Shown here piece after piece: positions 9,386 to 13,174 of a stretch of 64,000 bases of DNA. Below the pieces are notes generated by a model, which was not told where the DNA came from, made no database searches, and saw only the letters and a program-made list of their open reading frames with translations. Origin of the DNA: Methanothrix sp. (lineage in GTDB: Archaea; Halobacteriota; Methanosarcinia; Methanotrichales; Methanotrichaceae); the NCBI GenBank assembly GCA_963682135.1, contig OY821645.1, forward strand, positions 544,001-608,000, read 5' to 3'. Within the stretch, counting starts at the first letter, position 1. Each line of letters opens with the position of its first letter. Both the position numbers and the translations under genes were made by a program.

Positions 9386-9862
9386 TCAGCCCGGCCCATC
9401 GATAAGCCGCAGGTAGCACACCACCGAGACCACCAGCGGCACAAACCCGGCCAGGAGGGCCCAGTAGGCCCGCTTTAGATTTCTGTGCTTGTAACCTACC
9501 AGTTCCCGGTAGAACTCTTCGGCAAGCTGCGGCGAGCTCATGTTCGTATCGTAATTCTTCGGCGTGAATACCCGCACGGCAAAAAAAAGGCAGACCAGCC
9601 AAAGGACGATGGGCAGGACAAACAGGCCGATCCGAAGCCACGCTTCCAGTCCCTGCACCGCTATGACTTTTCGCAGGTCGCTAAAAGAGATGGCAGCAAA
9701 GTAGATGCCTTCTACCAGGGTCACGGCTGCGATGAGCTGCTTGGCCGCTTCTTCTAGAGAGGCGACGGACTCGCGGACGGCGGTGCGGGCCGTATCCAGC
9801 CAGAACTCGTCCAGCTCAGTGACGGGCTCGGCGACAGCGTCCTGGGATTCGATGTCTGCCAT
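9386..9862 (-). CDS. 3-TM membrane protein, Pycsar-effector-like, third gene of the CHAT operon
   Basis: Three hydrophobic segments; pattern AAKQLI..TM..TM-P-K...YK...LKRAYWALLAG resembles PycTM/DUF5706 (similarity judged by eye). Confidence 0.7.
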   Translation of the reverse strand: MADIESQDAVAEPVTELDEFWLDTARTAVRESVASLEEAAKQLIAAVTLVEGIYFAAISFSDLRKVIAVQGLEAWLRIGLFVLPIVLWLVCLFFAVRVFTPKNYDTNMSSPQLAEEFYRELVGYKHRNLKRAYWALLAGFVPLVVSVVCYLRLIDGPG

Positions 9863-9878
9863 GATTTGAAGATCCTCA

Positions 9879-10091
9879 CTAAATGCCCCGTATTACGGTT
9901 TTCTCTTGCACCTTTGTAACATAGAACTTGTTCCTGGTGCCGCAGAACGGGCAGCGCTCAACAAAGGAAACGGCTCCTGGATCTCCTTTCCTGGCCAGCT
10001 TGCCGTCTGATTGCAGGTGTGGCTGCTCATCCCACTGAAATATCCGGTCTGAGGCTGTGCATCTTTCATTGCAGCATAGGATTTTGAGCAT
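9879..10091 (-). CDS. Small Zn-ribbon protein, second gene of the CHAT operon
   Basis: CCNERC ... CPFCGTRN Cys pairs; 15-16 bp gaps to both neighbours; ends TVIRGI. Confidence 0.75.
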   Translation of the reverse strand: MLKILCCNERCTASDRIFQWDEQPHLQSDGKLARKGDPGAVSFVERCPFCGTRNKFYVTKVQEKTVIRGI

Positions 10092-10106
10092 GATCGATCT
10101 CCCATT

Positions 10107-11069
10107 TCATTGAATTTGCTCCAGTCGTTGCCTGACATATCCAGCGAGTTTGGCGTGGGGACTTCCCAGTTCCAGGAAGGCTGCCTCAGCCAGACGAATC
10201 AATCGCAAAGCCTCCTTCACATTTCCGGTCTTCTCTTCTAGAATGGCAAACTGAGCCATGCTGACAGCAATATCATTTTTATCACCAATCTCCTGAGAGA
10301 TTTCTAAGCTCTTTTGGTAGTGCCGCCGAGCTTCATTAAGATCGCCTTTTAAATATGCTAAATTTGCTAATCCGTTCAAGGATTTTGAAATTCCAGCCTT
10401 ATCTTGTAGTTCTTGAGCAATATCAAGACAATCATGAAATAAACTGTAAGCATGATCATAGTCGCCTTTTATTTCAGCCAAATTGCCAAGTTCACCCATT
10501 GTAGCTAATATACCTTTCTTATCTCCGAGTTTCTGCTTTATTTGGAGACTCTGAATGAGAAAGTCGCGAGCTTCATCCCAATTCTCCTCATTCATGGCTA
10601 GCATGCCTAATTGATGCAATGAAGCTGAAATGTTGCCGATGTTGCCAATTTCTTGGGAGATTTCAAGACTATGTCGAAAGAGCTTCTTAGCGTCTTTATA
10701 ATCACCTGTTAAGTATGCCAAAATACCTAATGATCCAAGAGAGCTAGAAATGCCTCTTTTGTCTCCAATCTCCTGGGAAATTAAAAGACTCTGATGATAG
10801 AGTTTGCCAGCTTCATGGTAGTCGTTTGCATCCTGAGCCAAAGTGCCCAGTTGATATAGCGAAGCTGAAATGTTGCTTTTATCACCGATATCTCTGGCAA
10901 TCTCATGGCTTTGCTTGAATAGCTTTTGAGCGTTATTATATTCGCTTTTTTCTTGAGCCAACATTCCTAGACCGCGCAATGAGTCTGATTTGCACACCTT
11001 GTCGTCTAGCCTATTTGCGATCTCAATACATTGATAAAAGAAATTTTGAGCATCATCGTAGTAACCCAT
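10107..11069 (-). CDS. TPR-repeat C-terminal part of the CHAT-STAND-TPR protein (frameshifted)
   Basis: About seven 40-aa TPR_12-type repeats (SL.ISQEIGDK.GI..SL..LG.LA); continues the upstream ORF after a 1-nt shift. Confidence 0.88.
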   Translation of the reverse strand: MGYYDDAQNFFYQCIEIANRLDDKVCKSDSLRGLGMLAQEKSEYNNAQKLFKQSHEIARDIGDKSNISASLYQLGTLAQDANDYHEAGKLYHQSLLISQEIGDKRGISSSLGSLGILAYLTGDYKDAKKLFRHSLEISQEIGNIGNISASLHQLGMLAMNEENWDEARDFLIQSLQIKQKLGDKKGILATMGELGNLAEIKGDYDHAYSLFHDCLDIAQELQDKAGISKSLNGLANLAYLKGDLNEARRHYQKSLEISQEIGDKNDIAVSMAQFAILEEKTGNVKEALRLIRLAEAAFLELGSPHAKLAGYVRQRLEQIQ

Positions 11070-13174
11070 TTATATGATACATGCCCAAGTTGATTTAAGC
11101 AAGTCATCTCAACGTTTTTATTATCAAGCACTTTTGCTGCATCCAGTGCCTGATGGAGGCGAAGCCTGTATTCGCTCCAGTAACCTCGATCGTCTAGATA
11201 ATCCTGTAATACACATAAAAATTGAAGTAATTGATGTGAAGCTCTTTTCAGCTCGTCTCCTTTTTCGTGTTGTAACCGGGCAACAGTAACGTCCATGCCA
11301 GCGAGAATGTTCTCACGTTCCCATTCAAGCATGTCGAAATTAACGCTGAAATGCCGGGCATATTCCAGGAAATACTTTGCTGCTCTTGGTTGAAGATTTG
11401 CCAGAAGCTCTTCTCCAGCTTTGCCGGCAGCGTACTGACGCATGAGAGGATGCAAGCGGTAGCGGTAGAGCGTGACCTCCTTCCCTTCCTCATCCAAAGC
11501 CGCGATCTCCCCCCTATCCAAGAAAGAGCTGCGCACCAGTTCTTCAAGATCACTTTCCCAGTTCATCTGCCCTTGCTGGCCGTCCTCCAGGCAGATGCTC
11601 TTGATCGCATTATCGTTCATCGAGCCAAAGAATACAGCTAGACGAGAGAATAGATTCCTTTGGCCCTCTTCCAGGCTATTGTAAGAGACATCAAATCTAT
11701 CTGATACTTCTTTGGGTGGATTTCGTCTCAGCTCGTCCCTGATTCCAGCCAGGTGTCGCCTGGTTGACTGGACTGCCACCAGCTTGATGGCCAGCGGGTG
11801 ACCCTGCATGAAACCAGCGATCTCGGCCAGGCTGCTCTGCTCTTCAGCGCTCAGATGCTCCCCCCATTTTGGAAAACTCCGGCGGGCTTCTCTAAAAAAT
11901 AGCCTGATTGCTTCCTCCTGCTCCATCTCCGGCACCCGGATCTCCCGGCCACCGCAGGGCAGGCTCTCGCGCGTTGTCAGCAGGGCCGCGCTGGGCTGGG
12001 GGATGCCCTCCAAGAAGCGCCAAAGTCCGGGATCCTTTATGCTCTCGGCGTTGTCCACCACCAGCAGGCTGGCAGTATCGTAATTCCTGAGATAATTCAA
12101 GACCGTGTCCCTTTTTTTATCCAGGGGGTGCATGCGAAATTCCAGGCCAAAGACGTTATCAAAAGCGTTGAGCATCTCCTCTTGGCCCAGGCGCTCCATC
12201 TCGGCGGCGCTCCTCCAGAAGACGCCTCCCGGATAGCGCCAGGCCAGCCTTCTTGCCGCCTCAGCAGCCAATACCGTCTTGCCGATGCCTCCCTGGCCGG
12301 TGAGGACGACCAGCTTCTCTCCAGACTGCAAGGCGTCCATGGCCTGCGAGAGCAACCCTTTGCGCCCTCCTGGCGGATCGCCCCGGAGATAGTCGCCCAC
12401 GAATTCGTGCTCCGGAAGGCCAAAAAGTTTCTCTGCCTCAAAACTGGCCCTGCCCGTGGCTCCGGCGGCCAGAATTACGGCATCCTTTCCCGGGCCCTCC
12501 AGAACAGGGATCTTCTGCAGCTCGCCTCCGTTCTCCAGCCTCTTCAGAGCAGGCAGGGCATTCTTGAAGGCCTGGGCGATGGTCATGCCCGCCCCCAGGC
12601 TCGCGTAAAAGGGCCCGGCCAGAGCCATGGTCGACTTTAGCGAAACGGATTCCTTCATCCCCAGGACGACAGGAACGCCTTTGGCCAGCAGGACGTTCTG
12701 CAGGCTTGCCTCGCCTCCTTTGGCCGATTCACAGGCGCTCAGGAAGACCAGCTTAGCAGGCTGCGGCGCGCTTGTCACAATCTTTGCCAGCTCCTCCGCC
12801 GGCTGAGCGTCCAGCTTGCCGTCCTCCTGCTCGAAGGCGAAGTAGCCCTTCACCTCTTCGTCTTCCAACAAAGCTGTGCATCGGTCGCATTTCTTCTCCT
12901 GCGGCAAGTGAAGAGCGCCGCAATTGGGGCAGCGCCGCCCCAGGGCTGCGTGGCCGTCGAAGTGCACGATCTCGTAGCCGCTCAAAATCTCCTCTCGCAG
13001 CCCTTCCACCGTGGGCGGGCGGAGCATCTTCAGGAAGACCGGCGCCTGCACCCGTCGCAGGCCGCCCTGCAAGGCCCACTGGTCGGCTAAGTTGGGCAGG
13101 TCAGGTAGATTCAGGGGCCGGGAGAGGATCACCAGAATGCGAAAGCCTTTGGGGGAGGAGGCATCTTGCGGCAT
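11006..13174 (-). CDS. CHAT (caspase-HetF) protease + STAND/NB-ARC ATPase, N-terminal part
   Basis: HFDGH (His) and FLSACES (Cys) dyad; Walker A GQGGIGKT, Walker B LLVVDNAE, GHPLAI and LHPLMRQYA. Confidence 0.9.
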   Translation of the reverse strand: MPQDASSPKGFRILVILSRPLNLPDLPNLADQWALQGGLRRVQAPVFLKMLRPPTVEGLREEILSGYEIVHFDGHAALGRRCPNCGALHLPQEKKCDRCTALLEDEEVKGYFAFEQEDGKLDAQPAEELAKIVTSAPQPAKLVFLSACESAKGGEASLQNVLLAKGVPVVLGMKESVSLKSTMALAGPFYASLGAGMTIAQAFKNALPALKRLENGGELQKIPVLEGPGKDAVILAAGATGRASFEAEKLFGLPEHEFVGDYLRGDPPGGRKGLLSQAMDALQSGEKLVVLTGQGGIGKTVLAAEAARRLAWRYPGGVFWRSAAEMERLGQEEMLNAFDNVFGLEFRMHPLDKKRDTVLNYLRNYDTASLLVVDNAESIKDPGLWRFLEGIPQPSAALLTTRESLPCGGREIRVPEMEQEEAIRLFFREARRSFPKWGEHLSAEEQSSLAEIAGFMQGHPLAIKLVAVQSTRRHLAGIRDELRRNPPKEVSDRFDVSYNSLEEGQRNLFSRLAVFFGSMNDNAIKSICLEDGQQGQMNWESDLEELVRSSFLDRGEIAALDEEGKEVTLYRYRLHPLMRQYAAGKAGEELLANLQPRAAKYFLEYARHFSVNFDMLEWERENILAGMDVTVARLQHEKGDELKRASHQLLQFLCVLQDYLDDRGYWSEYRLRLHQALDAAKVLDNKNVEMTCLNQLGHVSYKWVTTMMLKISFINVLRSQIG

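Follow-up and report, generated by a model that had tools for sequence, protein, structure and literature searches.

A gene trio encoding a CHAT-STAND-TPR protein (g1), a small predicted zinc-ribbon protein (g2), and a membrane protein with three hydrophobic helices (g3) is conserved as a unit across archaea and bacteria, with g2 and g3 forming a tightly linked downstream cassette. On balance, we lean toward viewing this trio as a conserved conflict module of NLR-like type whose most probable role is immunity by abortive infection. The copy described here lies in a Methanothrix sp. window (the whole stretch of DNA analyzed, 64,000 nucleotides long).

According to the ORF listing, all three genes lie on the minus strand and are read in the same direction, separated by gaps of only 15 nt (10092-10106, between g1 and g2) and 16 nt (9863-9878, between g2 and g3), as the initial annotation had described. 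Its placement of the genes among toxin-antitoxin modules also holds: HicA (7967-8122), HicB (8106-8327), a ParE-like gene (9074-9364) with a small ORF upstream (8904-9068), DUF2281 (14148-14354), and PIN (14270-14764) surround the trio.

The first gene is represented by two overlapping minus-strand ORFs, an N-terminal one of 722 aa with the CHAT and NB-ARC domains (11006-13174; ORF listing, Pfam) and a C-terminal one of 320 aa with the TPR array (10107-11069). Judging from its domain content, g1 is an Apaf-1/NB-ARC-type STAND ATPase with an N-terminal CHAT (caspase-fold) protease and C-terminal TPRs: Pfam detects CHAT (PF12770) at E 1.3e-19 and 71.2 bits (cut-off 24), NB-ARC (PF00931) at 28.5 bits (cut-off 23.5), and TPR_12 in the C-terminal ORF at E 3e-48. 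The His/Cys dyad, earlier described as intact, is indeed present as His75 (FDGH) and Cys148 (LSACES) and is conserved across relatives, with Cys148 retained in 34 of 35 aligned CHAT proteins from related loci and His75 in 36 of 38 aligned g1-type rows. The CHAT domain additionally contains a CxxC..CxxC insert at residues 82-99. Walker A (GQGGIGKT, 293-300) and Walker B (VVDNAE, 372-377) are conserved in 35-36 of the 38 rows, the Walker A Lys being retained in 36. Orthologs of g1 are single ORFs of 791-1349 aa, and the number of TPR repeats, presumed to constitute the sensor part, differs from genome to genome.

Both the NB-ARC-like ATPase and the TPRs that the initial annotation assigned to g1 were found, but here the TPRs are out of frame, so that the C-terminal repeats are not in the same polypeptide as NB-ARC; in 37 of 46 related loci the two occupy one ORF. 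A 1-nt frameshift at about 11070 splits the gene, at a minus-strand A-run (11069-11071) that appears one base short of an in-frame join; ortholog DNA gave no alignment there. Reading from K702 of the first ORF (nt 11069) directly into M1 of the second gives the TPR register of the orthologs, and the last 20 codons of the first ORF, after K702, are out-of-frame read-through. The frameshift is reproduced in contigs from public runs: those of runs X1 and X3 cross the site free of differences and gaps (0 of each), and record 4 of X4 covers 10955-11215; since it recurs there, the local trio copy is probably inactive. A second copy of g3, designated g3' (8393-8847, minus strand; 89-94% nucleotide identity to g3), stands beyond the ParE-like pair, has one indel that shifts its frame, lacks its first codons and a g2 of its own, and is probably a pseudogene. 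With g1 frameshifted and this second g3 copy also broken, the local locus appears to be decaying.

The second gene (9879-10091, minus strand, 70 aa) encodes a predicted zinc ribbon with two Cys pairs on beta hairpins, in agreement with the earlier description of a Cys-pair zinc ribbon. Cys6, Cys11, Cys47, and Cys50 are invariant among 36 sequences, and AF2 predicts a beta fold of four strands (pLDDT 84). Searches of Pfam, NCBIfam, and PADLOC placed g2 in no family, and no PDB match was found at E <= 0.001.

The third gene (9386-9862, minus strand, 158 aa) was claimed to encode a 3-TM protein, and this is borne out by three hydrophobic segments (residues 42-61, 71-102, and 131-156) and by an AF2 model of three long helices (pLDDT 92). 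Its claimed likeness to the Pycsar effector PycTM is more nuanced. The g3 of the window falls below the Pfam cut-off for PycTM (PF18967; 7.8 bits vs. a gathering score of 27.2), the same model is matched at E <= 0.01 by just 3 of 84 g3 relatives, and the genome under study has no PycTM (PF18967) match at E <= 1e-5. On the positive side, PADLOC PycTM models match 12 of 20 g3 family members (best E 6.4e-7), and one neighboring Atlas cluster carries the name Pycsar effector. Furthermore, hhalign of the 84 g3 relatives against seven genuine archaeal PycTM, each adjoining an ORF of approximately 240 aa read, unscanned, as cyclase-like, gives 80.9% and E 1.2e-5 over 136 collinear columns. Both the N-terminal helix and the full set of three hydrophobic helices fall within these columns, and g3 lacks the approximately 30-residue insert after helix 2 that PycTM conserves. 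Weak but real support of this kind suggests that g3 is a remote relative of PycTM.

The initial annotation proposed examining whether genes 2 and 3 accompany CHAT genes elsewhere, and they do so in both archaea and bacteria. Among 20 stretches around g3 matches in Methanotrichaceae genomes, picked from 69 match rows, g1 and g3 are co-linear on the same strand in 17, and a g2-like ORF is found in 19 (16 by tblastn and three from ORF reading). A wider sample comprised 70 g3-like loci on genome contigs from Methanotrichaceae, Methanosarcina, Methanoperedens, ANME, Chloroflexota, Acidobacteriota, and others. A zinc-ribbon ORF lies directly upstream of g3 in 65 of the 68 loci assessable for g2 (60 by HMM and five by Cys pattern only), and a g1-like gene lies upstream on the same strand in 46 of the 51 loci whose upstream sequence extends for 3 kb or more, 37 of them intact and nine broken. 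Across 38 large upstream ORFs, CHAT and TPR_12 were each detected in 35 and NB-ARC in 31. The genes of the relatives are separated by a few nucleotides or have overlapping stop and start codons, and g1, g2, and g3 co-diverge, as seen in their correlated pairwise identities (Spearman 0.77-0.82; 465 non-independent pairs from 31 loci). Repeated at dozens of archaeal and bacterial loci, this gene order is not a chance arrangement. The g2-g3 pair lacks an adjoining same-strand g1 in five of the 51 loci (L072, L073, L114, L118, and L122) and also in G042 (L049), and at a Nitrospirae locus it stands beside, and divergent from, an AAA_16-CHAT protein of another build, which points to the pair having become associated with a CHAT protein a second, independent time. 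Neither a g2-g3 fusion nor a fusion of g3 to a sensor was found.

The trio behaves as a set of accessory, mobile genes. Within Methanotrichaceae, g3 is present in 46 of 101 genomes and seven of 16 genera, and close relatives of g3 occur in Chloroflexota and Acidobacteriota. One trio copy adjoins a tailed-virus head module, and one g2/g3-like pair stands at the end of a type III-D-like cas module. Few of the 132 ORFs flanking 27 loci match PADLOC at E <= 1e-5 (13 family rows, each with one or two members), and therefore these flanks give no clear defense-island signal.

We infer for the trio an immune role in which a ligand bound by the TPRs of g1 would induce its ATP-dependent oligomerization, the resulting clustering would switch on the CHAT domains, and the active protease would cleave g2, with g3 a less likely target. 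Once freed, g3 would disturb the membrane, and the cell would be killed or arrested. The acidic N-terminal tail of g3, which had been put forward as a cleavage site, is a poor candidate because it is the least conserved stretch of the protein. A bolder formulation, which we advance tentatively, is that of a widespread, unnamed immune system in which an apoptosome-like receptor uses proteolysis, and not a cyclic nucleotide, to switch on a Pycsar-type effector, the zinc ribbon serving as a "safety catch." The ZnR+TM cassette would then be a portable effector module that has been taken up by type III-D CRISPR-Cas as well.

The direction of the signal could conceivably be the reverse. Here, g3 together with g2 would be a membrane sensor or anchor reporting membrane or envelope perturbation to g1, and CHAT would be the effector, acting on other cellular targets, as proposed for the EACC1-caspase of multicellular bacteria. 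The TM protein of EACC1-caspase is itself proposed as the sensor (Kaur et al., 2020, PMC7159879), a cleavage site is not evident in either g2 or g3, and g3 carries no effector assignment at the Pfam level. We nevertheless regard this reversal as unlikely: a typical sensor array already exists in g1 in the form of its variable TPRs, genuine PycTM effectors align end to end with g3, and the g2/g3-like pair takes an accessory position in the type III-D-like cas module. The small genes of the trio, moreover, are 3' and g3 has three helices, vs. the single-TM EACC1 of a 5' gene in that account.

Many hosts of the trio, including Methanothrix, Methanosarcina, and Chloroflexota, form filaments or aggregates. 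This habit lends some appeal to a non-immune role, in which the trio would be a regulated-proteolysis or programmed-cell-death module that helps multicellular or filamentous prokaryotes to develop, to maintain filaments or aggregates, or to control membrane proteins. Such systems are tied to a multicellular habit by Kaur et al. (2020, PMC7159879), a subfamily-2 g1 weakly resembles HetF, a CHAT protein (NF045509, E 8e-17, well short of its cut-off), and known defense genes are not enriched in the flanks. Yet the patchiness of the trio within a single family, its spread across domains, the frequent pseudogenization of g1 (nine of 46), and its ties to a provirus and to cas genes, each seen once, are better explained by accessory genes involved in conflict than by a core role in development, and we consider a non-immune role improbable. 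That g2-g3 is an independent toxin-antitoxin-like or membrane stress pair merely sitting beside CHAT-STAND genes, as the loci without an adjacent same-strand g1 and the toxin-antitoxin modules of the window might suggest, is very hard to reconcile with g1 lying directly upstream and closely spaced at 46 of 51 loci, with the co-divergence of the three genes, and with the L114 neighbor again being a CHAT-ATPase, of another architecture.

If the immune reading of the trio is correct, it would constitute a defense system common to methanogens, methane-oxidizing archaea, and several bacterial phyla, groups in which, to our knowledge, very few immune systems have been tested. A single membrane-effector family would then be driven either by cyclic nucleotides, as in Pycsar, or by an NLR-linked protease, which would connect two branches of prokaryotic immunity, one activated by proteases (gasdermin, Craspase) and the other by nucleotides. 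The trio would also offer a compact and testable archaeal system in which to study an apoptosome-like protease platform, with a defined candidate substrate encoded beside it. Should the immune model fail, a well-supported conserved three-gene neighborhood and two uncharacterized small-protein families would remain.

The initial annotation knew of no named system with this three-gene composition, and we likewise found none in PADLOC, Pfam, NCBIfam, or the literature searched, PADLOC-DB v2.0.0 having been compared at the level of its component HMMs. Among these HMMs, g1 matches mad8 only at E 0.005, its TPR ORF matches generic TPR and, weakly, PDC models, g2 matches none, and g3 matches only PycTM, weakly. 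A close parallel to g1 itself is found in the tripartite effector-NTPase-repeat-sensor proteins, whose layout g1 shares with its CHAT, NB-ARC, and TPR parts. Those proteins are treated as single-protein systems in a main text that uses the word "operon" 0 times, whereas the trio keeps two small downstream genes. The sensor of g1 consists of TPRs as opposed to the WD40 repeats of the published tripartite proteins in that text, and the g1 clade may stand in the accompanying supplementary clade tables.

Bacterial gasdermin systems pair a pore-former with a neighboring caspase-like or CHAT protease, sometimes bearing NACHT or repeat domains. They resemble the trio in encoding a sensor-repeat protease beside a membrane-damaging effector whose release by cleavage is presumed. 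The trio was rejected as a gasdermin system: in contrast to the gasdermin fold, g3 (158 aa) is predicted to be a purely helical integral membrane protein with three helices, neither g2 nor g3 has a Pfam match to the gasdermin family, and the trio adds a zinc-ribbon protein. Pycsar combines the cyclase PycC with PycTM, and g3 is collinear with the genuine effector over the 136 columns given above. A putative cyclase neighbors each genuine archaeal PycTM gene, whereas Pfam finds no cyclase family among the ORFs at 7086-16289, and the trio was set aside as a Pycsar system for want of an adjacent cyclase there.

In the type III-E CRISPR Craspase, gRAMP acts with the TPR-CHAT protein Csx29, which cleaves Csx30, and SAVED-CHAT cascades are comparable. 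The trio would share with these systems a CHAT protease linked to TPRs that cuts the small product of a neighboring gene and so sets off a toxic response. Activation in the trio would proceed via the STAND ATPase, in contrast to the RNA-guided complex or cyclic oligoadenylate used by these systems, and general searches detected no likeness of g2 or g3 to Csx30 or Csx31.

The EACC1-caspase system consists of two genes, one for a small TM protein and one for a protein that opens with a caspase-superfamily peptidase and continues into variable domains, among them STAND NTPases and repeats (Kaur et al., 2020, eLife, PMC7159879). It resembles the trio in pairing a small membrane protein with a caspase-superfamily protein that can bear these same elements. 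By the published description, EACC1 has a single conserved TM helix, is encoded 5' of the peptidase gene, and occurs mainly in actinobacteria (PMC7159879). The trio differs from that description in having two small genes positioned 3' of the protease gene, three helices in g3, and hosts drawn chiefly from methanogenic and methanotrophic archaea, Chloroflexota, and Acidobacteriota.

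The trio consists of a CHAT-STAND-TPR protease gene (g1), a Zn-ribbon peptide gene (g2) and a gene for a three-transmembrane protein (g3), which an ORF reading of the window resolves into four minus-strand ORFs. Two of these belong to g1, namely, an N-terminal ORF of 722 codons with its start at 13174 (13174-11006) and an overlapping C-terminal ORF of 320 codons (11069-10107); g2 (10091-9879, 70 aa) follows after 15 nt, and g3 (9862-9386, 158 aa) after a further 16 nt. The first g1 ORF carries a CHAT domain (Pfam, E 1.3e-19) and an NB-ARC domain (Pfam, 28.5 bits, over the cut-off), the second a TPR_12 array (Pfam, E 3e-48), and the catalytic dyad His75/Cys148 is intact, as are Walker A and Walker B. 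Directly after the CHAT catalytic His lies a CxxC...CxxC insert (residues 82-99, about nt 12878-12931, minus strand), present in 11 of 11 aligned Methanotrichaceae-type g1 proteins and missing in the other 24 CHAT proteins. The neighbours of the trio are toxin-antitoxin genes: HicA/HicB, a ParE-like gene with its small partner, and DUF2281/PIN. ORFs, Pfam and motif alignment thus bear out every particular of the three-gene arrangement, motifs and toxin-antitoxin surroundings described in the initial annotation. The source genome, that of a Methanothrix-like archaeon, is complete at 3.04 Mb in one contig, and the nearest homologs of g2 and g3 carry the labels Methanothrix or Methanotrichaceae.

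Of 101 genomes sampled from the family, 46 contain a relative of g3 (31 of the 64 that are of high quality), as do 7 of the 16 genera, which makes g3 an accessory gene. A family sample of 20 stretches was taken from 69 match rows, with full-length matches on longer contigs preferred; g1 and g3 are co-linear on the same strand in 17 of these stretches, and g2 is detected by tblastn in 16. Three further stretches, from a divergent subfamily, hold in the g2 slot a 64-70-aa CxxC...CxxC ORF that tblastn missed, and one locus is interrupted by a contig end. The locus L049 carries g2, a transposase-like insertion (identified by eye) and g3, with no g1. On a broader scale, 694 g3-like clusters at E <= 0.001 came out of a profile search across 1.84 billion cluster representatives; the best 150 of them are nearly all 73-266 aa long.

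A wide sample of 70 loci, from a scan of one genome per species, spans archaeal hosts (Methanotrichaceae, Methanosarcina, Methanoperedens and ANME-1/2) as well as Chloroflexota, Acidobacteriota, Zixibacteria, Nitrospirae, Omnitrophota and a few otherwise labelled bins. In this sample, which shares some contigs with the family sample and holds many kin, so that its counts are not independent, a Zn-ribbon ORF lies immediately upstream of g3 at 65 of the 68 loci whose upstream sequence reaches 250 nt or more (60 by HMM, 5 by Cys pattern only). The co-occurrence of genes 2 and 3 with CHAT genes elsewhere, on which the initial annotation had staked its proposal, is likewise found, with a same-strand g1-like gene before the Zn ribbon at 46 of the 51 loci that have at least 3 kb upstream. 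Of these g1-like genes, 37 are uninterrupted reading frames of 750 aa or more; the other 9 are in pieces or truncated, one of them with masked bases. A Pfam survey of 38 upstream large ORFs, comprising that of the window and 37 picked ones (three of them not g1-looking), recovered CHAT in 35, TPR_12 in 35 and NB-ARC in 31, and the catalytic Cys is retained in 34 of the 35 CHAT proteins. The g1-g2-g3 junctions are tight and often overlapping across loci, and g1, g2 and g3 diverge in step with one another (Spearman 0.77-0.82 across 465 pairs of loci, a correlation inflated by relatedness). Bacterial g3 proteins are 49-56% identical to that of the window but the corresponding g1 proteins just 23-27%, and some reshuffling or unequal rates must therefore be allowed for. 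Taken as a whole, we regard it as very probable that the trio is a real functional unit.

A few loci depart from this composition. At L114 (3907-7420, Nitrospirae), the pair is divergent from an 899-aa protein in which an AAA_16 ATPase is followed by a C-terminal CHAT domain (E 2e-29), the reverse of the g1 order, with a radical SAM/SPASM maturase and a further STAND-TPR protein in the vicinity. At L118 (140-7507, Chloroflexaceae), a g2/g3-like pair (6675-6935 and 6932-7507) comes immediately after a type III-D-like cas module with a Csx10-like protein, a Csx7/Csm3-like RAMP, Csx19 (E 4e-34) and a TIGR03986 RAMP (E 1.6e-123). The pair is solitary in two Anaerolineae-type loci. Among about 2.9 million viral contigs, just one contains the trio (L131, 1-9364), where the whole trio adjoins a tailed-virus head module of portal, maturation protease, scaffold and major head protein; the large terminase is present as a C-terminal fragment only (profile positions 549-714 of 760). 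This arrangement suggests a trio inserted at or into a provirus.

In the window itself, the frame of g1 shifts by one base within an A-run (11069-11071), which splits the gene. A blastn comparison of the frameshift region with close orthologs gave no matches, and protein alignment was used in its place; there, joining K702 of the first ORF to M1 of the second regains the TPR register of the orthologs, which are one ORF each (791-1349 aa). Two studies have public runs whose assembled contigs (X1 and X3) cross the site with 0 differences or gaps, and a further contig set (X4) covers it too; these runs may be the source of the genome itself. The frameshift is therefore not an artefact of a single assembly, and a minority in-frame variant could escape contigs. 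A programmed frameshift was rejected, given that the reading frame is continuous in orthologs and that the breaks at other loci fall at different places. A second g3 copy (8393-8847, minus strand; 89-94% nucleotide identity to 9385-9840) has one indel, also a frameshift, and is without g2 and without the first codons; the ParE-like pair sits between it and g3. The frameshifted g1, the frameshifted extra g3 and the 9 broken loci among 46 elsewhere fit a costly, dispensable and possibly self-toxic module, which would decay when unselected. Judged from its reading frames, the local copy is probably inactive, barring g1 fragments acting in trans.

Several other features of the window deserve mention in their own right. 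The protein encoded at 7086-7916 (plus strand; 276 aa) looks secreted, carries Cys-rich motifs (C..GC.C) in repeats and has no Pfam match; it is kept beside copies of g3 in a different genome of the genus (L038, 76% identity), where a second, truncated g3 copy also flanks the Cys-rich gene. A stand-alone 156-aa TIR-domain protein (1475-1945, minus strand; TIR_2, E 1e-24), about 8 kb from the trio, also gives weak ThsB_TIR and CAP12/Pycsar-TIR matches. A 1123-aa SIR2_2 + nSTAND3 protein (44133-47504, plus strand) resides in an island at 44-50 kb with 36-38% GC, as against about 50% elsewhere, and has the look of a SIR2-STAND defence gene gained by horizontal transfer. At 51904-52206 (plus strand) and 50862-51143 (minus strand), an MNT-type nucleotidyltransferase (NTP_transf_2, E 1e-13), typical of HEPN/MNT toxin-antitoxin pairs, was noted near small repeated ORFs (47631-47978 and 51110-51568) with a common N-terminal sequence.

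The g3 protein has hydrophobic segments at residues 42-61, 71-102 and 131-156, and its AF2 model consists of three long helices (pLDDT 92, pTM 0.81). Compared with 48,161 PDB representatives, this model retrieved generic helical bundles only (best Z 9.3, where helical proteins need roughly 13). A search for fused relatives of 315-2000 aa found none, which is weak evidence, and the eight longer g3-like matches that were read have no Zn-ribbon or sensor fusion. The closest likeness is to PycTM, the membrane effector of Pycsar. PADLOC PycTM models match the window g3 weakly (E 1.5e-4) and 12 of 20 g3 relatives (best 6.4e-7); a CBASS-type '2TM effector' model is also matched by 5 of the 20. With 7.8 bits against a Pfam cut-off of 27.2, and with E <= 0.01 reached by 3 of 84 relatives, g3 is not a member of the Pfam PycTM family. 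As a reference, 301 sampled genomes of the archaeal phylum were scanned for PF18967, which exceeds its cut-off in 7 of them (L124-L130), each time beside an ORF of ~240 aa that is cyclase-like by eye (unscanned), in apparent Pycsar pairs; the control genome, Methanosarcina acetivorans, matched PF18967 as well. Aligned by hhalign with genuine PycTM, g3 is collinear with it across 136 columns (probability 80.9%, E 1.2e-5) that span the N-terminal helix and all three hydrophobic helices, whereas the conserved PycTM insert of roughly 30 residues after helix 2 is lacking from g3. On these profile comparisons, g3 is probably related, at a distance, to the PycTM effector fold but lacks one conserved element, which one might speculate to be the nucleotide-sensing part. 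The trio is not a Pycsar system, because it has no cyclase.

The g2 peptide has invariant C6, C11, C47 and C50, and AF2 gives it a fold of four beta strands at pLDDT 84. Pfam, NCBIfam and PADLOC contain no family for it, its model has 0 Foldseek matches in the PDB at E <= 0.001, and none of its Atlas neighbours bears a name; a word-based search gave 23 close relatives, the 3 named ones being Methanothrix. A second Zn-ribbon subfamily occupies the g2 slot at other loci. MAFFT aligns the two inconsistently, end to end in one alignment (A2) and shifted in another (A5), and their homology past the two Cys knuckles is therefore unproven; modelling used the subfamily 1 alignment (A6) only. Co-folding of g3 (alignment A3) with g2 (A6) scored 0.12 against a mark of 0.32 in a run without folded controls, and counts neither way on binding.

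The layout of g1 is effector-NTPase-sensor, as in NLR-like STAND proteins. In the STAND superfamily, a ligand on the repeats brings about nucleotide-dependent oligomerisation, by which the N-terminal domain is activated through proximity. Passages of PMC13581612 and PMC7159879 describe this same scheme. The variable TPR number, reflected in g1 lengths of 791-1349 aa, is compatible with a diversifying sensor. CHAT proteases elsewhere act on neighbour-encoded proteins, including gasdermins, Csx30 and SAVED-CHAT cascades. The tight, often overlapping junctions and the PycTM-like g3 lead us to a model in which activated CHAT would cleave g2, a putative protease-labile lock or adaptor, or, less likely, a cytoplasmic loop of g3, after which g3 would damage the membrane. 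The acidic N-tail of g3, initially put forward as a cleavage target, ranks low because it is the least conserved part of the protein. This specific order of events is offered tentatively and is open to considerable doubt. The signal may run in the reverse direction, with g3/g2 as a membrane sensor; a small membrane protein is proposed as sensor in EACC1-caspase pairs, according to PMC7159879. The trio may also have a non-immune cell-death or developmental role. Among 132 flanking ORFs at 27 loci, a clear defence-island signal was not found with PADLOC; a handful match at E <= 1e-5, in 13 family rows of 1-2 members each, including Csa3/CARF, a type I methyltransferase, and QatD-, BrxP- and mad2-like proteins. 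We nonetheless lean toward a conflict or abortive-infection system as the more plausible identity of the trio.

The architecture of g1 has long been known, and the principle of a protease adjoining a membrane effector is familiar from gasdermin systems. The elements that set the trio apart were found neither in PADLOC models nor in the literature searched, including passages of PMC13069673, PMC7159879 and PMC13581612; the supplementary tables of these three papers, outside that scope, may list the neighbourhood or the clade of g1. Compared with these known systems, what is new is the conserved three-gene composition with a dedicated Zn-ribbon protein and a PycTM-like effector, how widely it occurs among archaea, and the one instance that ties it to type III-D CRISPR.
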